A DNA stretch of 64,000 nt, taken from IMG/VR virus record IMGVR_UViG_3300011008_000999; one strand, written 5' to 3'. This stretch comes from a virus. Lineage: Duplodnaviria; Caudoviricetes. Position 1 is the first letter of the stretch. Each line of letters starts with the position of its first letter. The notes beneath the pieces were generated by a model that was not told the origin of the DNA, searched no databases, and saw nothing but the letters and a program-made list of their open reading frames with translations. The translations under genes and the position numbers were made by a program. This document shows, piece after piece, positions 1,809 through 61,527 of this stretch.

Positions 1809-2258
1809 TTATGAAAGTCTTAATGAGAGGTACTTATATCCTTTTCCAAATTCTTTTTCTACTGCTTCTGGACATACTTCGAAGTCCTCCATAGTAGTAA
1901 GCTTAGTAGTATCGTTAAATAAAACCTGAATAAGACCGTCTTTATTATTACAGTAATAATTACCTTTTTCTTTGTATAGTTCAAAGAGTTTTACTACATT
2001 CTCATCAGAACATTTTACAGTTCGAACACCTATAGCAAGAAGATTATTAAGGAAGCCACCTATATAATCATCTTCAAACTCACGTTCAGGTCTATGCCAA
2101 CAATAAAAATCATTAAACAGAATATTTAGCATAGAATCATCGCTGTTTGGTACTAAAGTAACGGTTTTCTGTACTTGTGCAGATCCTTTAGGATCATACA
2201 CAAATACATGACATGATGAGCTATTAGTTTCAAACATTAAGTTTCTAATCTGGATCAT
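1809..2258 (-). CDS. FETNSSS-motif family protein 1
   Basis: N-terminus MIQIRNLMFETNSSSCH; start overlaps the radical SAM stop (ATGA). Confidence 0.75.
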   Translation of the reverse strand: MIQIRNLMFETNSSSCHVFVYDPKGSAQVQKTVTLVPNSDDSMLNILFNDFYCWHRPEREFEDDYIGGFLNNLLAIGVRTVKCSDENVVKLFELYKEKGNYYCNNKDGLIQVLFNDTTKLTTMEDFEVCPEAVEKEFGKGYKYLSLRLS

Positions 2259-3160
2259 ACAAAACCTCTCATCTTTCTTACAGCCTTAAACATATCATCA
2301 AAGGTATCTAATTTATCAAACATCTCTGTTTCCATAGACGAAATAGCAAATTTATTATGTACAGCGTCAAAAAAGTAGGTAAATTCACCTTCTTCGCCCA
2401 TGTGGTTAGTTTCCCACTGTTCAGGACTAACTATTTTCTGAACTTCAAGATCAAGTGTAGATAAGTTATCAAAACCAAATCCATTAAACTTATCTCTGTA
2501 ATCATAGAGGTGATTCTTAAGATATTCAATATTAGAATCAACTTCCTCTTTATGATCATTATAGTAATCTACACCACGACCTTTATGTTTGAATCCAAGA
2601 ATTAACATCTTCACATTGTGATTAGATAAGTTCTCGAGATCTACTTTAGAAAGGCATCCGTCTATTACATGAAGAACTGTATTTTCTAATCCATTATTCC
2701 AAAGAATAGGATCAGTAGAATCGGTAAGAGAAATACCAATTCCCCATACTAATTTTCTGCTCTGATAATCTCTAAGTTTGTCTACATTTACCTTAAGATG
2801 CTTTTGATTGATTGTAATATTAACAATTACTCCTTTATCCTTCATCTTAATAAGAAAGTCTTCAAGACCAGGATGAGTTATATCATTTGCATTAATTGCC
2901 ATTTCTGTTCCAGCATGAACAGTATCAAAAATAGGATTAGTAAGATCTGCATGCTTACCTTGTTCTGTACAACCTAAATAGCAATAAGGACAACCGCCGT
3001 TACATTTTTCTGTAATAGTAACATCCATACTTTCGGCAAATGCTGGAGTAAGATTATCGAGATCATTCATTCTAATCTTAGTTCCATCATCAAATAAACG
3101 TACAGTGTAATTTCCATTCTGATATTTTGCTAATAATTTCATTGTATACTTTCCTTTCAA
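2255..3160 (-). CDS. Radical SAM protein
   Basis: CxxxCxxC motif CNGGCPYC. Confidence 0.85.
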   Translation of the reverse strand: MKGKYTMKLLAKYQNGNYTVRLFDDGTKIRMNDLDNLTPAFAESMDVTITEKCNGGCPYCYLGCTEQGKHADLTNPIFDTVHAGTEMAINANDITHPGLEDFLIKMKDKGVIVNITINQKHLKVNVDKLRDYQSRKLVWGIGISLTDSTDPILWNNGLENTVLHVIDGCLSKVDLENLSNHNVKMLILGFKHKGRGVDYYNDHKEEVDSNIEYLKNHLYDYRDKFNGFGFDNLSTLDLEVQKIVSPEQWETNHMGEEGEFTYFFDAVHNKFAISSMETEMFDKLDTFDDMFKAVRKMRGFV

Positions 3161-3441
3161 AGTTTATATAAGTTTGATACATATAAATTACTCTAACATA
3201 ATCATAAGACTTCCATCTTCAGCAAGTTTCTGAGCAACTACTTCACACTCATATAACTCAGAAAAGCTACTTCTAGGTACATTATAGTATTCTCCGATAT
3301 TCGATTTACCAATTCTAGAAAGTACCTGCTGAATTTCTAACTGTCTAGACTGAGGTATGCTAGCACTCCAAGTAAAGAATACATTGTTGCTTTCAATTGT
3401 AGTAAACTGTAAATATTTTGAAAATTTCATAGTACGCCTCC

Positions 3442-3822
3442 TTAATCTCTACCACTGAAACTGAATGCTGTAATATCACCTTCAGTTACATCAGCATATT
3501 CATCCATTTCCTCTATAGTCTGATCAAAAGTAAAGTAATCACGGTTATTTGCATATTGTTTCAAACGATTAAGATCTAATGGTACATCATCGTCAATCAG
3601 TCCTTCTGTAGTCATTTCATCAATAAAATCTTTTCCAGTCTTAAATTTCTGCTCGCTTGAATGTTTTCCGCTATCATATCTATTCCAAAATACTACATCT
3701 TCTAAGTTATCAAACTCCTCTTCGCCCTTACAAAATCTATTAAACTCCGTAGATTTCATCATAACTAGAACATGTACGCTAGAACTATTGGTTTCAAACA
3801 TACTAGATCTAACTTGAATCAT
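3442..3822 (-). CDS. FETNSSS-motif family protein 2
   Basis: MIQVRSSMFETNSSSVH. Confidence 0.75.
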   Translation of the reverse strand: MIQVRSSMFETNSSSVHVLVMMKSTEFNRFCKGEEEFDNLEDVVFWNRYDSGKHSSEQKFKTGKDFIDEMTTEGLIDDDVPLDLNRLKQYANNRDYFTFDQTIEEMDEYADVTEGDITAFSFSGRD

Positions 3823-3836
3823 ATTTGTACCTCTCT

Positions 3837-4541
3837 TTATCTTTTTCTATTTTTCTTTTTATTATGACGGTTTTTCTTAGTAAGATAGAAATCATCATCT
3901 TCCCATGCAGCATCTTCAGCTCTTAAATCATCAAGAGTTTGAGGTTCATCATCATAACCATAATCTGATTCTATATCTTCATCATATTCTTTTTTATGCG
4001 CTAGATATTCACGTTCTGCTTCAATTTCCTCATCAGTAATAACCATCTTAGCGTAGCTTGTAGAATCCCAATCTATCTCATTACCGTCTTCATCTGTGCA
4101 AATGATAATATATTTAGGATCTTTAATCATAGTTTGAACAGTCTTAATCTGTTCTTTTGTGAGATACGGTGAATAATCCCACTCACCACCATGACCCATC
4201 CACTCGCTAAAACATTTAAAGTCACCAAAGCATTTAGCAAGTATAACCTCAGGTCTAAGTATCTTAACAAATCTATCTTCTGGATCAGCATCAACTGGTT
4301 TTCCATCTACATAGATTTCTTTTACACCAGAATATTTAAGTAATCCAAAGAACTGATCAGTTTGATGTTGCCACTCTGCCCAAGCATATACACCATTTAT
4401 GTTGTTATCTCCAGAAAAACCACCTGATTCAATATGTACTACTGGAGGTATTTCAAGTTCTTCAACCTGACAAATGTCAACTGCAAATGTCATAGTAGAA
4501 GAACTATTTGTTTCAAATATACTTGTTCTAATTTGAATCAT
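3837..4541 (-). CDS. FETNSSS-motif family protein 3, acidic then basic tail
   Basis: MIQIRTSIFETNSSSTM. Confidence 0.75.
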   Translation of the reverse strand: MIQIRTSIFETNSSSTMTFAVDICQVEELEIPPVVHIESGGFSGDNNINGVYAWAEWQHQTDQFFGLLKYSGVKEIYVDGKPVDADPEDRFVKILRPEVILAKCFGDFKCFSEWMGHGGEWDYSPYLTKEQIKTVQTMIKDPKYIIICTDEDGNEIDWDSTSYAKMVITDEEIEAEREYLAHKKEYDEDIESDYGYDDEPQTLDDLRAEDAAWEDDDFYLTKKNRHNKKKNRKR

Positions 4542-4559
4542 AGATATTCTCCTTATTAT

Positions 4560-4593
4560 ATTATAACACGATTAGTTCATAAAGTAAATAGTT
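4560..4593 (-). promoter_or_regulatory. sigmaA-type promoter, class 1 (AACTA-TTTACW-N17-TATAAT, TG extended -10)
   Basis: AACTATTTACTTTATGAACTAATCGTGTTATAAT; the motif recurs about 10 times upstream of genes. Confidence 0.75.
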
Positions 4594-13067: not shown

Positions 13068-13547
13068 TTAATCTGCACTATATTCTCTATACCAATTTTC
13101 ATCATCAGAGTCTAAGTATTTATATTCTGGTGCAGGACCAATATTTGGTCTTCCATACTCACCATCTCTAAAATATTTTACTTCTGAGTCAGTTCCAAAT
13201 ATAGCAAACTTAAGTACTTCTTTGCTCCAACCATCAGGAACTCCCATATCTTCAGGATGATCCTTATACTTATCTACTGCTTCTTGAAAATATCTATCGT
13301 GACCACCATAAATAATCTCTTCTACACCTGAGATATAGAGGAAATTGACTAACTTATCTATATTCTCACGATCAGATTTCCAACCATGAATAATAGAATA
13401 TATAACTTTTTCTGATGGCTTCAAAGAAGTTTCATCATCTACATAAATGAATCTCTGTGGTACGTGAATACCCTGACTCTTAGGAATAATAAGTACATTA
13501 GCACTAGAGCTGTTTGTTTCAAACATTGAATGTCTAATCTGAATCAT
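13068..13547 (-). CDS. FETNSSS-motif family protein 4
   Basis: MIQIRHSMFETNSSSAN. Confidence 0.75.
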   Translation of the reverse strand: MIQIRHSMFETNSSSANVLIIPKSQGIHVPQRFIYVDDETSLKPSEKVIYSIIHGWKSDRENIDKLVNFLYISGVEEIIYGGHDRYFQEAVDKYKDHPEDMGVPDGWSKEVLKFAIFGTDSEVKYFRDGEYGRPNIGPAPEYKYLDSDDENWYREYSAD

Positions 13548-13559
13548 ATTATCATCTCC

Positions 13560-13982
13560 TTATCTATGAATATCTAAAACCGTAAAATCTTTTGGAATAT
13601 TTTTATATTCATCATAATCTGGCGTATCTAAATATATTGAACTTGAATCAAATAAAAATGCATCGAGGTCTTCTTGTTTCATATTATAGCCAAACATATA
13701 AGAATCATAATCAAATGTATCACCTACATCATTAATTATATTGATACCTTTATAGCTTAAATACTGAATAAATTCTGCTGCATGACCTTCATCTTCAGCT
13801 TTATTATACATAAAAGCTAATTTATCTTCTACAGAAGCATTTTTATCTAAACTATATGTATCAACCATTAATCTAGACATTTTTATTTCTTTAGGTATTT
13901 TTAATGACGGATTAGGTGGAATGCAAAATACATCTGCACTAGAACTATTAGTCTCAAACATCGACTGTCTAATTTGTATCAT
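13560..13982 (-). CDS. FETNSSS-motif family protein 5
   Basis: MIQIRQSMFETNSSSAD. Confidence 0.75.
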   Translation of the reverse strand: MIQIRQSMFETNSSSADVFCIPPNPSLKIPKEIKMSRLMVDTYSLDKNASVEDKLAFMYNKAEDEGHAAEFIQYLSYKGINIINDVGDTFDYDSYMFGYNMKQEDLDAFLFDSSSIYLDTPDYDEYKNIPKDFTVLDIHR

Positions 13983-13998
13983 AATATATTCCTCCTAT

Positions 13999-16785: not shown

Positions 16786-17214
16786 TTAATTGTAGAGATA
16801 CTCGTATATCTCCAATGCTGACATTTCTTTTTCTTCACCAGCAATTCTAACTTTAATCTTTTCATCCTTGTCAAATTCTCTACCAGTGATCCAAACTTTT
16901 CCTGTCCAATCAGTAGGCTTGTAGTCTGCCATATCATTCAGACCTATTTTCTGCATCTTCTTATTTCGAGAATACATAACAGATCTACCTATTCTCAAAA
17001 TTTCTGCAGCTTCTTGAACTGAGTTAGCAACTGCAACTACACCATTCATTCCTTTAAAAGGATAAAATTCTGTCTGTTTTATATCAACTAACGCAACTGA
17101 TATTTTATTGTTATGTTCAATTTATTTTAGGCACTAGGCCTAAATACAATGGAATATGACATTCCTCAAAGTAACACTATTGTGCGAAATGAGTCCTCGT
17201 TTAGCTGTCTCCAT
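16786..17214 (-). CDS. FtsK-like ATPase fragment 2 with 12-aa intein C-tag, interrupted by a 24-nt stop-containing insert
   Basis: RBS AAGGAGGTG; METAKRGLISHN|SVTLRNVIFHCI[24 nt]EHNNKISVALVDIKQTEF aligns without gaps to the post-Walker-A region of the 42370 gene; in frame with ORF 16786-17049. Confidence 0.75.
17119..17145 (-). other. Candidate translational bypass (byp-like) element or micro-intron
   Basis: ATT TAG GCC TAG TGC CTA AAA TAA ATT: matched ATT codons, stop right after the first, hairpin TTTAGGC-CTAGT-GCCTAAA. Confidence 0.55.
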
Positions 17215-17521
17215 TGTAATCATCACCTCCTTTTATAAACTGTTTAGTTTGAGCTATATTTTTACATTGTTTACAACAATACATCTGATAACCTCTTGTA
17301 AAGTTAATGTACTTAGTAGGTTTATTACAAACTAAACATTTCCCTTCATTATTAGATTTTATATATGTATCATAATATTCTTTGCAAGTAATCTGTTCAT
17401 CAAATCTAATATGCGCAGACAGATAATTACCATTTTGAAAAGTCTGATTACATATTAGACATGTCATTGGATTATTTTTTATTTTAGGTACATATTCTTT
17501 TCCACAAATAAGACATTTCAT
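17201..17521 (-). CDS. Zinc-finger protein homologous to the N-terminal domain of the intron endonucleases; no nuclease domain
   Basis: CxxC...H...EYYDxYIK...CLVCNKPTKY...GY..YC..C as in 37323, 39323 and 41284. Confidence 0.7.
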   Translation of the reverse strand: MKCLICGKEYVPKIKNNPMTCLICNQTFQNGNYLSAHIRFDEQITCKEYYDTYIKSNNEGKCLVCNKPTKYINFTRGYQMYCCKQCKNIAQTKQFIKGGDDYNGDS

Positions 17522-19708: not shown

Positions 19709-20390
19709 TTATTCACTCACTTTAAGTTTTAACATATACAAAATTACTGCTTTGAGAATATCGCAAGTATAGTTTTTATTGATTTCTTTGTTATTTTCTT
19801 TACATCCGCCACCACAAATATCTGAAATAGAACATCCTTGACATTTTTCAGGTAATGTAAAGTTATAACCTAACTTGTACTTATGCTGCGCTTTAAGTTC
19901 TCCAATAATATCATCAGTTTCAAATATATTGCAGATTTTTTCTTTATATACCGTAGTCTGACATGGATAAATGTCTCCATTTACAAAGACTGTAATAAGT
20001 TTTTCACCGGCAGTACAACCTTCATACATAGTATTTATCATGATATTACTGAACTTAAATCTATTGTAGTAATCATAATTATGTTTCTTGAGAATGTCAA
20101 GTACATTACACATTTTGTCTATAATGACATTCATATCCATTTCACCACAGAAGAAATGATCTAAATATACTCCCCAACCAAGATTTCTTTCTGCTATCCA
20201 TTCAGCAAGTTCTTCAATATCGTCAAAGCTATTCTTATCAATAACTGAAGAAATTTCAATAGGTTTATTGTATGCAATAACTCTATCAATATTCTTTTTT
20301 ACAATTTCTGCAGAACTTTCACCATTATGAAATGGTTTAGAATAAGAAAATCCATCTAATGAAATACTAAAACTAACATTCTTATCTTTA
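19709..20390 (-). pseudogene. C-terminal half of a radical SAM/SPASM protein lacking CxxxCxxC
   Basis: ISLDG, C-GEK...GDIYPC and CxxCxxxxxCxGGC SPASM motifs; 5' end replaced by a FETNSSS gene fragment. Confidence 0.7.
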
Positions 20391-20534
20391 GTATTCAGTA
20401 TCAGCACTCCATCCATATTCTCCGCCTGTAAGAAATACTTTGTGTGGTACACTGACTGGAACATCTTTTGGAATTACTAATACATGAACACTAGAACTAT
20501 TAGTTTCAAACTGTCCAAGTCTAACCTGAATCAT
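20388..20534 (-). pseudogene. FETNSSS-motif family protein 6, truncated (48 aa, not in ORF track)
   Basis: MIQVRLGQFETNSSSVHVLVIPKDVPVSVPHKVFLTGGEYGWSADTEY*. Confidence 0.7.
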
Positions 20535-22950: not shown

Positions 22951-23408
22951 TGTTATAAAGCCTCTTTACTGCGTCAATATCTACTCTACCAAAATCTAAA
23001 TCGCCGTATTCTTCATCTCCAATATTATTTGCAGCAGTAATAAGTTTCATACAAAGATCTCTACCACAGGCTTTCATAGTTCCATCTTCATTAAATACGT
23101 TACGATACGCTGATTCAAATAATGCAATGTTTAATTCGGTCTGATTCATTTTTCATCGTCCTTTCTATTATTAATTATTTCTATAATGAGTTCAATTAGT
23201 AGTTTAAATAAATATAGTCTTATTCCTATACTAAATAAGACTATTCTTATATTAAAGTTAAATAGCTCAAAATTCTTAAATTAAGACGTATCTATTATCA
23301 GCTATAAGCTGTCTTATAGCTGAGATTAAAAGTCATAAACTAATAATCCCAGCTACGCAGCATAACACAAAAACTTCGTACTAATTGTCAGTTAATACAG
23401 TTTAATCA

Positions 23409-23765
23409 TTACTGCACATAGATCGCGAATTGATGATCTGGTGCATCAGTAGTAATACATTGTACTATTTCAGGATCTATTTTTCTAATAGATTTAATAG
23501 TTGGTCCGTCTTTTGTTCCAACATGTCTACCTTTATACCAATCAAATTCTTGATATATACCTTCAGCATCAATTGTGTACATTTTATCATTTATGAATAC
23601 ATTCCACTGATGCACATTAGAACATTTAACTTTACCATTACTAAATGTAATTTCATACATATTGTAAGATACTTTAGCAGTAGTCTTTTCAATTACTTTA
23701 TGAAACTGTCCATCAGTTCCTAGTACTAAGTCACCTACTTCAACCTCTTCAATAGTTTTCTTCAT
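23409..23765 (-). CDS. Free-standing intein/Hint core (blocks N2, B, F; no block A, block G or exteins), class-3-like
   Basis: KTIEEVEVGDLVLGTDG, CSNVHQW (block B His + Trp), VQCITTDAPDHQF (block F Cys). Confidence 0.8.
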   Translation of the reverse strand: MKKTIEEVEVGDLVLGTDGQFHKVIEKTTAKVSYNMYEITFSNGKVKCSNVHQWNVFINDKMYTIDAEGIYQEFDWYKGRHVGTKDGPTIKSIRKIDPEIVQCITTDAPDHQFAIYVQ

Positions 23766-25066
23766 TGAATAATTTCCTTTCTATATAATTTTACTCAGCT
23801 ATTTCGCCAGTGATAAATACAAATTTATCTTCAGCAATATAAGCAGTTCCAATTGATTCTATATCATCGTCCTCTACTTCAAAGATAGATGGTTTATTAT
23901 TCTTAACCATTACATCAGCGATATCGTCCCAATCAAATATATCATATTTTGTACCAGGATTTAGGCTTTCATTTTCTTTGAGTCTAAGATTATATTCTGG
24001 ACGTCCAATGTTACAGAATGCTTTACAAACTGAATCATAGCTGTTATCTGCAACTTCAACTACACAAGTAATATATTTAGTGTCAATTATGAGCAACATA
24101 CTATCATCCTCCTTAATAATCAAGATACAATAATAAAGTATCACATTCTACAATATAATGTCCTAAGTAGTCAGGATCTTCTTTATTGATTTTGCTGTTA
24201 AGTTCAGCTTTAATATTATATAACCACTCTCTAATCCAAGTATCATTACGGTTTACAAGATCTGACTCTATTCTATTTTTGTTTTCTTGAACGACATTAT
24301 CATCATCTCCATCATTATCAAGAAAATCATACTTATCAAAATCTTCAGCTAACTTAATAAGTCTATCAGCAAATTCACTATTACTTGTAATTTCTGCCAT
24401 AATGATCCTCCTTATAATAGAATTTTGAAACCATGATAACCTCCTACATCTGATTAAACCAACTATCCTTTTTATACCACATATCTTCCTAATAATTGGC
24501 TTCTTTTCTAGATAGTTCTAATTCATTAGCAACTTCATCAAAGTCACCTGAATCTTCTGGAGAAGGTGTCATTCCAAGATAAAAAGCTTTCATAGTGGCA
24601 CTTAATCCAGCTTTCTTACATGTAGATTTTCCAACATTATCAACAAAGTCTTTTATATCTTTTTCTAAGTTACCCATGATATTTCTCCTTATCTACTTAG
24701 TTTATCTGATAATTCTCCAGTATCAAATCTATCATGAATGCTATAATGTCCTTCATCTCGCCCATCATAACAAGGATAGCAATATGATCCATTTTTCATA
24801 AATTCAAGAAGCTCAGCAGTGTATACAGGTCCATAATAAGGTGGATAAATAGGATTTGGTCTAATATACTTAACAAAAGTAATTTTCTTAGTTTCAGAAG
24901 TTCCTATACCATAGAAATATGCGTCAGCTTCAAATGTATCATCTTCAATAGGAAGTTCTTTATAGTCTCTTTCTTTCCAGTTGGTTTCTTCCCAGATTTT
25001 CTTTTCTCTATCTGACCAATAACCTTCAAATTCTGGTTTCCACATATCAGACTTCCTCCTTATATT

Positions 25067-36642: not shown

Positions 36643-39600
36643 CTATTGTGTAGGATTCTTAGGTTTAATATTAAGCTTAATTGTAGGCTTAGGTGTCATA
36701 GGCTGATCTGCAGTCGTCTTATCTATATTAAGCTTAATCTGTGGCTTTTGACCTGGAATCTGATTTAATGCGGCTCCAATTCTTTCTCTATTAGATGGTT
36801 GTCCAAAATTAGGTTGTGAAGGACCACCAAAATTAGGTTGAGCAGGACCTGATGAAGTGAAATTAGGCTGTGCCTGACCAGTAGGTTGAGTAGGTTGTGT
36901 AGTATTGACCGATGTATTAGAAGGTCCAAACATTGCTTCTAATCCACTAAGTCCTAAATCAGGTGAATCTGCTTCTACAGGTTTACTTTCTGTAGGCTTA
37001 GCATCATTAGATTTCTTACCACCAAACTTAAATGTTACTGGTTCTTCTTCATCTTTCTTAGGTGGAGCTTCTGTCTTAGGTGCTTCTTCTGTTTTAGAGT
37101 GATCTTTGAAGAGCTCATCTTCATCAAGATCCTCATCCTCTTCAAACTCATCCTCTTCTTCGATCTCGTCTTCCTCTTCTTCAGGTTCCTCGCCAATCTT
37201 ATGCTGAAGTACCCAACCAGTATTTAACTCATCGAAGTTTTTACCTTGTCTCTTACATAACTCTACAAACACAGGATTATTGTAAGAAAGCTTCTGATCT
37301 TCATCGAACTCCCAGTCCATTTTTAGGTTGTTGTATAATTTGTAAAATTTTGTATAAATTGCTGGACTTCGTTTTTACTCCATAACACTATGTAGTTTAG
37401 CTTATTCTTTTTAGCACATTTACACTTTTGTACATCTTTATTAGTCCATACATATAACGCAACTTTATATTGTGGTCTAGTTTTTGCTTTATTTGTCCAA
37501 ATTTGTACTGTTTCTAAATCTTTTTTATTACGTTTATTAAAGAAATGTCCATTATGGTGCCAATAACCATTAATTTCAATAAACATATCATACGCAGGTA
37601 AATAAAAGTCACAATGAAATGGATAACGTACTTCTTTATACTGTGCTATATATTCAATCTTATTTTGTATAAAGAACTGTTCTAAAGTATCTTCTAGTTT
37701 AGAATAATTACCATTCTTTTTCATTGTATGTACAGCTTTCTTCCATAAAGTTGGATTTTGTACTGCACATTTATTACCATATTTAGTTATGTTAGTTTGA
37801 TTAGTTTTGGCTTTTATTTCTTGATTTTGTTGTGGATTTTCACATCCATACTTTTTAAGATTAGTATGTTTAATTTGTTCTTTTACATGCTCACTTTGAA
37901 ATGCATATTCTGTACCATATTTATTTAGACATGTTTCTTTAATCTTATCTTTTCCATAAGTAGAAGCATATACATTAGTGGCGCCATATTTATCTAGACA
38001 AGTTTGCTCATATTTTTGTCTAGTTTCAATATCTTTTTGAGCACATGAATTTCCACAATATGTACCATAACCAAGAACATTTCCAAAGAACTTAGTAGGC
38101 TTACCACACACTTTACATATACCATCTAAGCCTGATTTTACATATTTATCATAGTATTCTTTATCAGACATCTTATGTTTACGTAAATGAGATGTGATAC
38201 CTTTATTTTTAACATCTTGACCACAAATTTTACAAATCATAATTAACCTCGCTTTTACTTTCATAAAAGATTAGACTATATCATTACTCCTTTCGGAGAA
38301 CCTACTACTTCGCTTTAATAGATTTACACTAAGCTAATCTCACTTAGATACTAACCATAACTGGCGCTACTCTACTCACTTCGTATACTATTAAATAGTA
38401 TCTTATTTTCATCTGTATTTCAAGACCTATAGCTTTCGATAGTCGTTGAACCCATCTCTATTCGAGACTTGGCTGCTGATTTTCCATTCTTAAAACCCTT
38501 AGGACTCGCCATAACGTCCTTAGGTCATCTGTTTAATTTTTTCTACTTTCGTAGCGTTCACACCTGTGCATATTTCATCACTATGTTGTAGCTTAAACAG
38601 CTTTAGGTACGTATCATTATTTGATACTGTTCCAGCAATTCAATAGGTTTAAGGAGAACCACTGGGATTGTTAATTCTCCGGCTGTGTATAATATGTCTG
38701 AGTTTCGATAATCTCATTACCAGAACCAATAAAACCACGACCTTTAATCTGTGGTTTAGCTAACTGAGAAATATCCTTTTCGAACATAAGCTGAGAGGCA
38801 CCATCATCAAATCCACCAAGAAGAACTGACATCTGAATATTGTTCTTCAAGTCAGTAGAAATAGTAGAACCAGAAGCTCTCTGACATGCAAGTGCAAGGT
38901 GAACTGCTGCTGCACGACCAAGACGTGCAATAGATCCAAGCGCCTGTTTAACTATATCAACTGATTTATAGTCATCAGATGTCATAAGCTCATTCAACTC
39001 ATCTGCAAGGAAGAGCAATACTTTAGGTGTATAGATACCCTTTGTCATTCTGATAGTGTTCTTATCAATATATGAATTGTAGCCTTTTACTTCAGGTAAC
39101 TGAGGATTTCTTCCTTCCCACTTGCCTTCCATTATACCATCGTAAATTTTTTGAATAGTAGTAATAATAGGCTGACGTCCATCAGGATAAATAGCTTTCA
39201 TTTTGCTATAATTTCTATCAGATTCATCCAGGTCTACCATAAGCTCGAAGATTTCATCAAACTGAACCTTCTTACCCATAACTTCAAAATAATTTACTTC
39301 TTTATCTTTAATTTTATAAACATTATTGCGTAGATAACCAAGTATCAAACTCAGATTTAGTATAAAATACAAATAATTGTACTTTATTATGTTTAGCTAC
39401 TTTTAACTTATGTGTATCTCTAACTGTCCAAGTATGAATAGCATTTTCAAAATACTTAGATGTTTTAGATTTTTCTATCCACTCTGCTAACTTTTTACTA
39501 TCAGTTTTCTTATTATACGGATGTAATCCATGTGTCCAATGAAAGTTAAGTTCAATATAAATATCTTTAGATGGAATGTATAAATCGCATACAAAAGGAT

Positions 39601-42370
39601 ATTTAGTTGACTTATATCCATGTTTAGCATCTGGATAAATACTTAAAAGTTGCTTATAACATAAATCTTCTGTCTTTGATACCTTAAATGAATGATTCTT
39701 CTTTTTAGTCAGATAACTTTTATGTTTAATTTCAGCTTTTTCTTTATCTGACTTCGACATATATGCATCTCTATGCTTTTGACCAATAATCTTCATTTCT
39801 TCTTCAGTTTTACTATCAAATGTAGCTTGTCTTTTTGCGTAAATTGCTTTCTTTTCTTCATCAGATTTAGCATAATATTTGTCTGAAATTTTTTGCTTTA
39901 CTGATTCTGCAGCAAATGGACTTGTTGTTCCATATACCTTAAGACAAGTTTCTTTATACTTCTTACTATTATTATATGTTTCATCTCCATACTTTTCTTG
40001 ACAAGTAGATTTTCTTTTAAGAATAGATTTTTGTTTTTCATCATTTGTTCTATTTAATAAAGACTCACTCGTCTTATTTGGATTATTGTATGTAGGAGTT
40101 CCATACCTAATAGTTTTAGTAGTTTTAACTGAATCAGAATGTATAGTAGATTTATTTAAGCATGATCTAGAACAATACTTATTATAACCTTTGAAAATAT
40201 CTTTAAAGCTTGTAGGTTTACCACATACTGTACATATGCCTTTTCCAAAGTACATATCATAATATGTTTGTTGACTAACATTATGTTGTTCTAAATGTTT
40301 CTTAAACAACCTATTTGAAATTGGTTGATTACATATTCTACACATTGTTTCATTCATTCTAATCTCTCCTTAGACTATATCTTTACCTTCAACTTAATGG
40401 TCAGGTAGTCACCGCTTCGCTTTCGCTACTCCTTTTCAGGATAGTCGTTGAACTTTCCTCTATTCGAGACTTAGCTGCTGATTGCTCATTATTTCAGTGT
40501 TTAGGATTTAACCATGCACCATCTTAATGTTTCTTTCTACTTTCGTCGCATTCACACTTACGTATATTTCATCGTTATGTTGTAGCACATTAAGCATTAG
40601 AGTTGTCGTCCCAGCAATTCAATGACCATATTCTTGCGCATATTTCTATACGCCCAGGCCAATAATTTTATAAAATCAACCTGCATCTGTTCCATGAACT
40701 TAAATCGGTCCATCATAATCTGTTGGAAATTTGCTACAGCGTCTGCGGCCGTAGGTACATCCAAAGCTACTCCTTTTACGCCCTTTCGGATAACTTCATA
40801 TTTTTCAATACAAACCTGACTATATCTCGTATCTAAAATGATTATCTAAACTGATTATACCATTGATTATCTCCAAATTTTTCTATACAGTAATCCAAAT
40901 ATTTCTGAATATCAGATCTTACCCAAAGAACTACATTATGCGCATCCATACGTTGCTGTTTTGCTTTATCTTTTAATGTAAGATCTTCATCTAGAAACTG
41001 ATCACCTTTAATTTCAATAATTTCATCTTCAATAATAAAATCTGGAAAATAATAGCATTCTTTACCTTCATCATTAGTATATTTGAATCTGAGTGGTTCT
41101 CTTTCGATATGGATTTTATGGTCTATACAATAGATATATACTGCTAATTCCCAAGAACTATCAAAATTTAGAGAATCATACTTATAATGTTTCATAGTTT
41201 TTACATGAATCTCATGATTTTGTTGTGGATTTTCACATCCAAATCTTTGTAAATTAGTTTCTTTTATCTTTTGTTTACCATATTCAGAACCCCCATACAT
41301 TTTCTGTACCATAGCGTTCTTGCATAGTCTGTTTAGATTTTTCTTTTACAGTTTCACCTTGTAAAGAACATGTATTACCATATCTAGACATATTTGTGGA
41401 TTGTGTTTTTAATTTGATTTCTGGTCTTTGCTGTGCATTTTCTACACCATATTTCTTTAAGTTAGCCTCTTTAATCTTTTGCTTTACTGCATCAGCAGCA
41501 TAAGGATTGCTAACTCCATATTTTGATTGTATTGTTTGTTTAACTTTATCTTGTGTTTCTTTAGTAGAAAAAGATGTAGGATAACCATATTTCTTTATAT
41601 TAGTATCTAATCTTTTGATTTGAACATTTTTATCATTATTCATACAGTTCTTATCACAATGTTGTCTATAACCAGATTTCATACTAATAAATTCTGTTGG
41701 TTTACCACAAGTAAGACAAACTCCTTCTTTATCAGATTTTATGTACAGATCATAATACTCTTTATTAGTCAAATTATGATGTTTTACATGCCATGACATT
41801 GATTTATCAGATTCAAATTCTTCTCCACATATTTTACATATAATCATTTCAAATACTCCTATCACTTTCAACTGTAACTCATCTTCAGTCGTACTCTCCT
41901 CACGGAGATAGTCGATACACCTTCAATTAAGCTTGGCACGGTATTACCTGCTATCTTACGAAAGACCGTAGGATCTCTTAGTCAGCTGCTTCGTCTATGG
42001 CCTAAGGCTATATATCTTGTTGTAACACTTCATATAGCAGTCTTATTCAACTGATACCGTTAGCAATATAGAATAAGATCTATATCACACCCTTGAGTAA
42101 TGAGGTTCAATAGGAATGCGCAAAGCTACTTACGCCACGTAAAAGGTTAAATTCTACTCTTTTACAGTCCACACCTACAAGTTGGAATCGATCTGAGTAT
42201 CTAGATACATGGCCTACGATACTCTGTTCACAAACAGATTTACCTGAATTGTGGAATACCGTTCCATCAGGCATTAAGTACATAGGGTCATCTTCTAGTG
42301 AGAATCCAAAGTAAGTGTCGGTTTTCTTTAGTGGTCGTACTTCAAAATCGACCTGTTTAACCACACTCAT
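36643..42370 (-). CDS. FtsK/SpoIIIE ATPase C-half with 41-aa intein C-tag; exons 42370-42132, 40786-40679, 39328-38674, 37317-36643 (558 aa spliced)
   Basis: ...DGTVFHN|SGKS; Walker B LFLADE; IARLGRAAAVHLALACQR; exon joins keep frame (LRGV-KGVKG, QMQV-NNVY, QPEN-DWEF). Confidence 0.88.
37318..38673 (-). mobile_element. Group I intron 3
   Basis: 5' exon GGAGAAU pairs with IGS GUUCUCC; UCCCAGU pairs with 3' exon (G)ACUGGGA (P10); P7 GACUA/UAGUC; terminal G. Confidence 0.88.
37323..38264 (-). CDS. Intron 3 homing endonuclease (Zn finger + KYG repeats + PD-(D/E)XK/Vsr-like domain)
   Basis: CKICG, KYG repeats, CDFYLP..IEING.WHH; lies after the S element. Confidence 0.8.
   Translation of the reverse strand: MKVKARLIMICKICGQDVKNKGITSHLRKHKMSDKEYYDKYVKSGLDGICKVCGKPTKFFGNVLGYGTYCGNSCAQKDIETRQKYEQTCLDKYGATNVYASTYGKDKIKETCLNKYGTEYAFQSEHVKEQIKHTNLKKYGCENPQQNQEIKAKTNQTNITKYGNKCAVQNPTLWKKAVHTMKKNGNYSKLEDTLEQFFIQNKIEYIAQYKEVRYPFHCDFYLPAYDMFIEINGYWHHNGHFFNKRNKKDLETVQIWTNKAKTRPQYKVALYVWTNKDVQKCKCAKKNKLNYIVLWSKNEVQQFIQNFTNYTTT
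39323..40357 (-). CDS. Intron 2 homing endonuclease
   Basis: Zn fingers, KYG repeats, CDLYIP..IELN.HWTH; its stop codon lies in exon 3. Confidence 0.8.
   Translation of the reverse strand: MNETMCRICNQPISNRLFKKHLEQHNVSQQTYYDMYFGKGICTVCGKPTSFKDIFKGYNKYCSRSCLNKSTIHSDSVKTTKTIRYGTPTYNNPNKTSESLLNRTNDEKQKSILKRKSTCQEKYGDETYNNSKKYKETCLKVYGTTSPFAAESVKQKISDKYYAKSDEEKKAIYAKRQATFDSKTEEEMKIIGQKHRDAYMSKSDKEKAEIKHKSYLTKKKNHSFKVSKTEDLCYKQLLSIYPDAKHGYKSTKYPFVCDLYIPSKDIYIELNFHWTHGLHPYNKKTDSKKLAEWIEKSKTSKYFENAIHTWTVRDTHKLKVAKHNKVQLFVFYTKSEFDTWLSTQ
39329..40678 (-). mobile_element. Group I intron 2
   Basis: Exon CAGGU pairs with IGS GCCUG; UUAUUG pairs with 3' exon CAAUAA; AAGAUAUAGUC S element; core similar to intron 3. 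Confidence 0.88.
40787..42131 (-). mobile_element. Group I intron 1
   Basis: Exon GCGU pairs with IGS GCGC; CUUU pairs with 3' exon AAAG; R element UCGACUA before and S element GAGAUAUAGUC after the ORF. Confidence 0.85.
40842..41871 (-). CDS. Intron 1 homing endonuclease, split into two ORFs by one extra G in a G-run near 41290
   Basis: Zn finger and KYG repeats in 41284-41871; YFPDF..IEIKG PD-(D/E)XK motif in 40842-41312. Confidence 0.75.
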
Positions 42371-42531
42371 ATAATAATTTTCCTCCTTTGCTAATAATAG
42401 CATTAAGCTTATATTATTAAATAGCTTCTTAGCAACAATCCCAGTTATATAGAATATCTGAGAAGTCATGTTGTTTAAGTTTAGCTCCGTTAATAAAAAA
42501 GTTTGCTACACTACAATCTCCCCATAACATA

Positions 42532-47573: not shown

Positions 47574-48068
47574 TTAATCCTCCATAACTTTTTCCATGAC
47601 ATAATGTGATCTAAATTCATCGTTCATGTGCATATAAATATTTACAGGAAGTTCAAGATGTTCGCCAGTATCTCTATCAACTAATGCAAGAATATGTCCA
47701 CCATTAACAGTATATGATGTACCGTCTATAGAAATTTCAAACATTTCATCTTCACCAGTATGTAATTCTTTTACCTTACGTGGTTGTCCATTCTTACCTA
47801 TTACTACGTCACCTAATTTGACGTCTTTAGCAAGTTTAATTCGTGAACCTACTGGATAGTTTTCATCATTTGAAAATTCTTCAATAGTGAAATTTCTTTT
47901 TACTCGTTTTCCATCAATAAGGTCAACAAGATGATGCTTCCTATATATATTTTTAATTAAATAGTCTTTTACCGTGATTACTTTTTTAATACCAAATCTA
48001 AAAAGTGATAAGGTATAATTTTCATCTGCGACAATAAAACTATCATCATCTAATGAGATCTTATACAT
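47574..48068 (-). CDS. Free-standing intein middle piece (blocks N2+B) preceded by a degenerate internal duplicate
   Basis: IKLAKDVKLGDVVIGKNGQPRKVKELHTGEDEMFEI...YTVNGGHILAL resembles the VMA-type intein N-region after block A; lacks Cys1, block F and block G. Confidence 0.82.
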   Translation of the reverse strand: MYKISLDDDSFIVADENYTLSLFRFGIKKVITVKDYLIKNIYRKHHLVDLIDGKRVKRNFTIEEFSNDENYPVGSRIKLAKDVKLGDVVIGKNGQPRKVKELHTGEDEMFEISIDGTSYTVNGGHILALVDRDTGEHLELPVNIYMHMNDEFRSHYVMEKVMED

Positions 48069-56789: not shown

Positions 56790-57581
56790 TTAATGTACTA
56801 ATGTATCATACATCATGATAGGAGTATTTTCTTCCATACATCCAGTACCACCACAAATAAGTATACTGGTACTTGGAACTGTTTCATACAACTCGTCATT
56901 CTTATTTTGATCATTAAGATACCAGCCAATTGGGCTGACTTTTTGAGTATTTGGATTAATCGTAAGTCCCATAGGAACAATATTCCAGAACTTATCATCA
57001 TTAGGTGTAAATGAAGCTCTATTAGGAATAGGTTGTCTCTTTTTACACTCTACCATAATAACACCCTGGTCAATAAAGGTTTTAATGTAGTAATAAGAAT
57101 AGTGAATTGATTTATCTGACATTTCAGTAACAAATTCTTTCTTATCTACTTCCTTACCAGATCTATCATAGTTGATATAGATGTATCTACTATCATAAAA
57201 GATAATTGACGTACCTAAACGTTTTTCAGCAATTTCGTATACCCAATCATCAAAAGGTGCGCGTCTTAAGAATATTAACTTTACAATTATTCCAAATAGT
57301 AAGATTACTAGTGAAATTACTATTAGACCCATACAGAAATACATTCTGTATATTTTATTTGCAGTTAGCTTCATGAAAATCGGATTTCCAGTTTTAACTG
57401 CTACAATTGCTGCGACTATAGCAAGAACAGCAAAGACTAATCCAAAAATAGCTAAGAATCTACATATCTTAAATGTTTTATACGCAAACTGATGTTTAGG
57501 CTGTATACCTTTTAAGACTTGGACGTCATCATGAGAATCAGCAATACTATCATGTACTGCTTTTGCTTCTTGTTGAGCCAT
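56790..57581 (-). CDS. FtsK/SpoIIIE ATPase N-half (2 TM helices) ending in a 16-aa intein N-tag
   Basis: Ends ILICGGTG|CMEENTPIMMYDTLVH*: half Walker A followed by intein block A (56790-56840). Confidence 0.85.
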   Translation of the reverse strand: MAQQEAKAVHDSIADSHDDVQVLKGIQPKHQFAYKTFKICRFLAIFGLVFAVLAIVAAIVAVKTGNPIFMKLTANKIYRMYFCMGLIVISLVILLFGIIVKLIFLRRAPFDDWVYEIAEKRLGTSIIFYDSRYIYINYDRSGKEVDKKEFVTEMSDKSIHYSYYYIKTFIDQGVIMVECKKRQPIPNRASFTPNDDKFWNIVPMGLTINPNTQKVSPIGWYLNDQNKNDELYETVPSTSILICGGTGCMEENTPIMMYDTLVH

Positions 57582-60936: not shown

Positions 60937-61527
60937 TTAAGTCTCGTATCTACCAGTATCTGTTGATATACAAAAACAAGGTAATTCACCAACGAGTTCT
61001 ATTTTATTTATAATCATTCCATTACAATAAAGTTCAGCATTATACTTACCCATAAGATAATCTATACCTTTACAAGTAAACCAATATGTATTTTCATCTA
61101 CTTTCTGCGGTTCGCTTTTAACAACAACCTGCTGTAAATATACTCGCTTAACTGTATCAAAATGAAAATCATAAATTTCTGTTTCATCATTTGTTATAAT
61201 AGGATCAACCTGTACATCAATAGGTTCATTATAACAAAACTTTTCAACTATTGCTTTTTCTTCTAGAGTAAGTTCTTCTTCACTAGTTATTTCATAACTT
61301 TCTTCAAGTGGTACAAATGTACAAAACTTATCAAGTTCATCTTTTGCTTCTCTAGGAAGTTTACTTACGTCTATAAGTAATACATGATTATAAGCACATG
61401 TAAATTCTTCATTTCTATTATATGTAATCTTGCAGCAAAGTTCAGGATGCGTTCTATGTATCTGAGTTACTCTACTGCCGTCTTTCATGATGTCACCAAC
61501 TTTGACATCTTGCCATTTCTTTATCAT
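60937..61527 (-). CDS. Free-standing intein/Hint core with internal insertion; no block A or block G
   Basis: KKWQDVKVGD, FTCAYNHVL (block B), INKIELVGELPCFCISTDTGRYET (block F). Confidence 0.75.
   Translation of the reverse strand: MIKKWQDVKVGDIMKDGSRVTQIHRTHPELCCKITYNRNEEFTCAYNHVLLIDVSKLPREAKDELDKFCTFVPLEESYEITSEEELTLEEKAIVEKFCYNEPIDVQVDPIITNDETEIYDFHFDTVKRVYLQQVVVKSEPQKVDENTYWFTCKGIDYLMGKYNAELYCNGMIINKIELVGELPCFCISTDTGRYET

Follow-up and report, generated by a model that had tools for sequence, protein, structure and literature searches.

An extein-free core encoded by a jumbo phage as the probable middle piece of a natural three-piece class 3 split intein

A 118-aa protein encoded in a jumbo phage genome is, on comparative sequence evidence, very probably the central part of a class 3 intein that is naturally split into three pieces. 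Its gene is located at positions 23409..23765 (minus strand) of the window, the 64,000-nt stretch of phage DNA analysed here, and its product (IntM, hereafter the core) most likely uses very short tags to link two far-apart fragments of a DNA-motor-like ATPase. We favour this reading because the pieces tile onto an unsplit homologue, because all four layouts of the intein exist among relatives, and because the WCT triad of class 3 inteins is completed across the pieces. In addition, the core, the N-tag and the C-extein are under purifying selection, and the genome holds a single N-tag and a single C-tag of this kind.

The window belongs to a phage record (G000) of 331,944 nt that is complete, has direct terminal repeats and carries 40 tRNA genes. 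The sequencing runs holding most of the G000 sequence are cattle and sheep gut metagenomes. Window positions equal 79126 minus the genome position, and the genes described within the window are on its minus strand. The core gene starts with ATG, extends from the N2 motif to just past block F and is preceded by the ribosome-binding site AAAGGA (23775..23780, minus strand). In the frame spanning 23409-23780, a stop is located just upstream, five codons 5' of the ATG, so that no block A could be translated ahead of the core. At the other end, the frame closes five residues past Phe113 of block F, with no His-Asn following. In all 21 full-length metagenome loci the core is without extein, its frame being closed at most 20 codons upstream and ending after block F, and most of these loci have purine tracts like the ribosome-binding site of the core. 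Since 68 homologues could be found at 59-92% identity, the core frame is neither a chance frame nor an assembly error. The start residue is identical in 63 of the 64 aligned core sequences, and a block G tail was found in none of the 64.

The core gene of G000 is followed by a non-coding gap of ~260 nt (window 23150-23408) with two apparent hairpins. This gap is missing from three related genomes (G001-G003), in which the next gene is close behind. A promoter and terminator scan around the core gave results at chance level only. Contigs of three bovine-gut RNA libraries match the region with ~98-99% identity, some of them on the core gene; their cover of the region is even, and DNA carry-over is a possible source.

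The AlphaFold model of the core has a pLDDT of 89, and all 12 Foldseek matches at E ≤ 1e-3 are Hint folds, placing the core in the Hint beta-fold. The top seven are class 3 DnaB inteins (6BS8, 6RIX, 6RIY; E 5e-7 to 6e-6), led by M. smegmatis DnaBi1 (6BS8; E 5e-7, TM about 0.69). These best structural matches, which include M. chimaera DnaB1 (6RIX), are contiguous mini-inteins residing in DnaB and show ~25% identity to the core. BIL and Hedgehog Hint domains, which also represent the Hint fold outside the classical cis intein, appear as weaker matches. They carry their own N-terminal Cys and act in cis, and they are not known as three-part ligases. Similarity to PF05203 (E 7e-5) is below the family cut-off, and no match was obtained in an NCBIfam search of the core or in a TIGR01445 search of the genome.

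The core-family profile spans residues 16-134 of the 145-aa MchDnaB1 intein, indicating that both ends, block A and block G, are missing from the core. Cys103 aligns with the block F Cys of MchDnaB1, and the block B His-x-Trp aligns as well. His52 (B10) and Trp54 (B12), encoded at 23604..23612, and Cys103 (block F position 4; 23457..23459), all on the minus strand, are invariant in 64/64 aligned cores. Trp54 and Cys103 occupy the positions of class 3 Trp (B12, N3:12) and Cys (F4, C2:4), the W and C of WCT, and Cys103 is the presumed initiating nucleophile. Cys48 (block B position 6; window 23622-23624), a further conserved Cys close to the active site, is likewise present in all 64. There is no internal LAGLIDADG endonuclease domain in the 118-aa core, the unsplit homologue being a mini-intein of ~145 aa. 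By alignment and model, the core is predicted to be a Hint domain that lacks exteins and has its nearest counterparts among class 3 DnaB inteins. The original prediction had described it as an extein-free class 3-like core lacking both junction blocks and carrying the Trp and Cys of the WCT signature, with a predicted Hint fold as a check; each of these points agrees with our results.

A search for longer homologues of the core gave a single protein. In one longer homologue, P0069, the core runs into Thr-His-Asn/Cys (the slash marks the junction) and then into 120 more residues. The extension matches a G000 gene outside the window, at genome 84773-85234 (plus strand; L035:1174-1635), preceded by an endonuclease gene. 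Its product consists of a basic 32-aa leader ending in block G (Phe-Thr-His-Asn/Cys), Cys+1 and the C-terminal extein; we refer to it as the C-tag gene. A profile search gave the unsplit homologues P0078, P0081 and P0131. In these proteins Pro-Leu forms the start of the intein and directly follows an Asn of the host, an ATPase of the FtsK/SpoIIIE family that matches PF01580 (E 7e-18). Only one G000 gene ends in a Pro-initiated tail. This N-tag gene, also outside the window (genome 97066-97461, plus strand; L036:1267-1662) and followed by an endonuclease gene, encodes an FtsK-like Walker B fragment ending in a 12-aa tag that starts with Pro and is preceded by Gln-Asn-Asn. The N-tag and C-tag genes are 42 kb and 29 kb distant from the core, respectively. 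The suggestion that very short tags would suffice for a core reaching from the N2 motif to just past block F is thus supported by the 12-aa N-tag and the block G C-tag found in the genome. A genome search for tag genes had been proposed, and it did disclose an N-tag and a His-Asn C-tag, but the N-tag of this core follows Gln-Asn-Asn and not Gly-Lys.

Aligned with unsplit P0078, N-tag, core and C-tag tile along the intein with a gap or overlap of at most a few residues. As in split inteins, the pieces are encoded apart, add up to a complete intein and sit within a single host protein. Position 1 is Pro, and not Cys or Ser, in all five genomes with three separate genes and in the unsplit homologues. 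Thr at G5 (C1:5), the terminal Asn and the +1 nucleophile reside on the C-tag gene and not on the core, so WCT is complete only across pieces, with W54 and C103 in the core and the canonical Thr in the C-tag. The C-tag reads Thr-His-Asn/Cys in 4/4 aligned tags and Thr-Ser-Asn/Cys in genome G006. As judged from its residues, the three-gene element has the sequence features of class 3 inteins. A genome scan of G000 revealed a single such N-tag and a single coding-strand C-tag.

The original prediction had offered another partner for the core, a 12-aa tag at 17214 with Ser at G5. The tag exists as described (17140..17214, minus strand), with His-Asn/Ser at Walker A of the same host ATPase. Splicing of this tag by the 23409 core, alone or shared with a second extein-free core of 196 aa (60937..61527, minus strand), could be considered because the tag lies only 6 kb from the 23409 core, interrupts the same ATPase, and both cores have a block F Cys. 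Fused homologues, however, speak against the pairing, and we regard it as very improbable. Where the 23409 core is still fused to its C-end (P0069, P0070, P0074, P0078, P0119 and L105), it runs into Thr-His-Asn/Cys, not His-Asn/Ser, and then into the C-terminal FtsK-like part, while P0081 and P0089 start with a homologue of the 60937 core and lead into His-Asn/Ser-Val at Walker A, which corresponds to the 17214 tag. Furthermore, a dedicated Thr-bearing C-tag is present in all five genomes examined. Judging by these fusions, the 17214 tag belongs with the 60937 core at the Walker A site. The Gly-Lys N-tag also belongs to that system, being preceded by Gly-Gly-Gly-Lys where the gene at genome 4979-6301 (L037) ends. 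Together they make up a second apparent three-piece intein, comprised of a 15-aa Ala-initiated N-tag, the 196-aa core, in which the block F Cys is present and the block B Trp absent, and the 12-aa C-tag with Ser at G5.

The FtsK-like ATPase of G000 is encoded in four fragments, with two three-piece inteins, one cis intein and one intein-free split. The extein of the 17214 tag continues in an FtsK-like fragment (16786..17139, minus strand) that ends without an intein. This intein-free split (window 16786 / L036:1267) lies in an inserted domain that is continuous in P0078 and is not Hint-like; a Hint remnant at this position was rejected (hhalign probability 0.2%). The cis mini-intein (L037:710-1999) is located five residues before the split Walker A intein, and its end reads Gln/Thr in G000 and G001 and Asn/Thr in G002, G003, G004 and G006.

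Four layouts exist at the insertion site of the core. The intein is unsplit in P0078, P0081, P0131 and genome G004; the N-piece and core are joined in P0073, P0083, P0089 and P0121; the core and C-piece are joined in P0069, P0070, P0074, P0076, P0119 and L105, the last with an N-tag gene 1.1 kb upstream; and the core stands alone in the doubly split form, with three separate genes in five complete genomes (G000, G001, G002, G003 and G006). The order of the three genes is core, C, N over 12-59 kb in G000-G002 (12-42 kb between pieces in G000), core, N, C in G003, and N, core, C within 5 kb in G006, where an 8-aa C-tag is placed directly behind an endonuclease gene. Neighbours of the core are unrelated between phages. 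A tree of 57 rows mixes the layouts; several independent origins of the three-piece state were considered and not retained, as a single origin for the six tested three-piece rows was not rejected (p-AU 0.154) and the distant core-only proteins lie on short contigs.

These data also bear on the idea that the pieces are joined at the RNA level by cis- or trans-splicing introns and that the intein is made as one chain. Relatives G001, G003 and G004 do have intron-like interruptions in these genes, but every piece comes with a ribosome-binding site, a start and a stop of its own, and the neighbours of the core differ from phage to phage. The gene order in G003 is beyond any cis-splicing, G000 would need a 290-kb intron, and Rfam gave no match in the window or in the tag loci. 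We therefore hold RNA joining to be exceedingly unlikely. In G001 and G003 one such interruption lies ahead of the N-tag, and relatives have interruptions of this kind within a few codons of intein junctions (L004/L042 in G004, L056 in G001, L079/L123 in G003, and L069).

Comparison of the core between phages gives dN/dS of 0.04-0.12, with synonymous sites near saturation. Purifying selection also acts on the N-tag (pS 0.67-0.93, pN 0.05-0.11) and on the C-extein behind an in-frame stop (pS 0.44, pN 0.06, in both phages with a 6-nt insert). It might be argued from this stop, present in the C-extein gene of three genomes, that the core is a decaying remnant or is kept for an unrelated job. Such a view is very unlikely to be correct: catalytic residues are invariant in spite of the near-saturated synonymous sites, selection also maintains the tags and the extein downstream of the stop, and G002, G006 and L093 have no stop in the C-extein.

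In the mechanism that we propose for the three-piece intein, the core would bind both tags as the missing beta-strands of its Hint fold. Cys103 would attack the Asn-Pro bond ahead of the N-tag, holding the N-extein as a thioester, in keeping with class 3 chemistry (PMC7891396), and Cys+1 of the C-piece would then take over the N-extein. Cyclisation of the terminal Asn would release the C-tag, and an S-N shift would give the joined ATPase. The core would thus supply the first nucleophile and end chemically unchanged.

A model of the three-chain complex scored 0.66, compared with 0.00 for the best among three controls other than the 17214 tag; the mark used for such models is reached by 58 of 80 solved complexes and by 2 of 110 mismatched pairs. 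Between runs, 73% or more of the contacts recur, with a partner pLDDT of only 49-50. In the model, tag residues 24-35 pair with core residues 111-117 and touch core residues 52-55 and 103-106. The model lends weak support to association of the pieces, as split halves can pass by likeness to solved inteins. A three-body reaction with tags of only 8-12 structural residues may be inefficient at phage expression levels. In G000, G001 and G003 the ATPase product would also require putative recoding past the TAG of the C-extein.

Fragments of the ATPase may also assemble without ligation, because the host is split once without an intein, after the fragment at 16786. Combined with such assembly, the core could be a trans-acting, tag-removing protease of BIL-like type, cleaving both the N-tag and the C-tag. 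The host tolerates the intein-free split, and class 3 active sites can cleave instead of splice, as in engineered gp41-1 WCT (PMC7664689). Nevertheless, we consider a protease unlikely, since the tags keep Cys+1, the G5 Thr and His-Asn invariant (Thr-Ser-Asn in G006), and Cys+1 is required for ligation and not for cleavage. Moreover, the ATPase core is conserved around the junction, and homologues run through this part without a break.

Returning to the three-piece intein, a core that carries the first nucleophile and comes out of the reaction unchanged makes turnover conceivable. It is possible, though doubtful, that the core releases its spent tags and acts repeatedly as a tag-directed protein ligase enzyme, and that, with an orthogonal 60937 core, the four-fragment ATPase is built by two separately expressed switch-like ligases. 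Given the tightly inserted strands, single use of the core is more likely than turnover.

In G000, G001 and G003, the fifth C-extein residue is followed by an in-frame TAG. In G000 the extein is interrupted by ATT-TAG-ATC after residue 5, six bases more than in G002 and L093. The 17214 gene contains a 24-nt insert (ATT-TAG-hairpin-ATT) ahead of the fragment that continues the extein, and relatives have inserts of 6, 10, 16, 18 and 29 nt at these or nearby codons. The pattern is always a codon, TAG, and a matching or near-matching codon, and longer inserts fold into hairpins. Such hop-like inserts (6-29 nt, some not multiples of three) were observed in C-tag genes of four phages, and their presence varies between phages; sites are at window 17116-17142, L035:1282-1290, and in L039, L041, L059, L062 and L069. 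A genome-wide scan with this pattern, designed after both tag-gene cases had been seen, gave three TAG matches in 332 kb, two of which are these tag genes, and one on the reverse strand.

By analogy with T4 gene 60 (bioRxiv 10.1101/2022.08.31.505936), ribosome hopping is our best guess for these inserts; removal at the RNA level is a possible alternative. Among the RNA-library contigs, no listed piece spans the 24-nt insert. Amber suppression was rejected, as no suppressor is present among the 40 tRNAs (two anticodons are unassigned) and suppression cannot account for the 10-, 16- and 29-nt inserts in G003. Perhaps hop-like inserts guard against adjacent endonucleases.

In G000, each tag has an endonuclease gene as its immediate neighbour, that of the C-tag (PHROG 3339/559) lying ahead of it and that of the N-tag (DUF7487, REase-like) behind it. 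The one before the C-tag is present in G006 and absent in G001 and G002. Endonuclease genes beside both tags fit the fractured-gene route (PMC2677866), by which we infer that the three-piece intein arose: free-standing homing-endonuclease genes would have invaded a cis intein near each of its ends, and rearrangement would then have scattered the pieces. In G001, the frame of the endonuclease that follows the N-tag gene carries at its end a second, diverged N-tag copy (L125, G001 178325-178375), so that the C-extein might become spliced to the nuclease itself, or the nuclease might be a competitor for the core.

Other elements of the window deserve mention. A paralogous FtsK-like gene has a three-piece Cys1 (class 1) intein (window 56790-57581, 47574-48068 and 42107-42469) with a 16-aa N-tag, a middle piece free of extein, and a third piece holding blocks F and G, by which Walker A is completed. 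This gene is interrupted by a cluster of zinc-finger endonuclease-like genes (window 37323-41871), and a truncated gene of the same kind is found directly before the 17214 tag (window 17201-17521); neither location has an Rfam intron match. A near-identical N-terminal peptide ending in FETNSSS starts several genes (window 1809-4571, 13068-13994 and 20388-20534), forming a repeated N-terminal motif family.

Engineered three-piece split inteins were derived from Ssp and Rma DnaB, Npu DnaE and gp41-1 (Sun, Yang and Liu 2004, cited in PMC2677866; bioRxiv 10.1101/2023.01.30.526203). There, too, the N-, M- and C-pieces must meet and the middle piece has no extein, but those inteins are class 1, whereas the present one is natural, class 3, and cut at both extreme ends. 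According to a 2023 preprint, natural inteins are encoded by one or two genes, and more than two fragments had not been shown in nature (bioRxiv 10.1101/2023.01.30.526203). In the literature on split inteins, with subscription journals mostly outside its coverage, we found no natural three-piece case. Described natural split inteins have two pieces with an extein on each, in contrast to the three genes in five genomes reported here. Split class 3 inteins are rare, with 0 among 1701 class 3 inteins in NCBI nr, and AceL NrdHF was the first naturally split one (PMC7891396). The present intein shares with it a predicted class 3 chemistry in trans and metagenomic origin; AceL NrdHF has two pieces, each with an extein, whereas here the block F Cys belongs to a third chain that has no extein.

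Short IntN pieces reported from nature range from 15 to 37 aa (PolB16 with 15 aa, VidaL, AceL/GOS TerL; PMC13014065). These atypically split inteins are also cut right after block A (S1-type site), but the N-tag described here has 12 aa and a second cut falls just before block G. A split intein with free-standing endonuclease genes beside the cut is likewise seen in fractured genes (Dassa et al. 2009, PMC2677866). In them, two adjacent halves flank one endonuclease gene; here an endonuclease gene is at the split, but adjacent halves flanking it were not found, and three pieces are 12-42 kb apart in an order that varies between phages.

At 12 aa, the N-tag is shorter than any reported in nature (minimum 15 aa), and the C-tag of one relative has 8 aa. 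As both tags can be synthesised, the extein-free core is a lead for protein ligation and labelling, and it puts the question of multi-turnover inteins within reach. For annotation, such cores fall below the Pfam cut-off and are missed by NCBIfam, so that fragmented phage ATPases are overlooked. A conserved natural three-piece family in which intermediate layouts are preserved would open the route to a double split to study.
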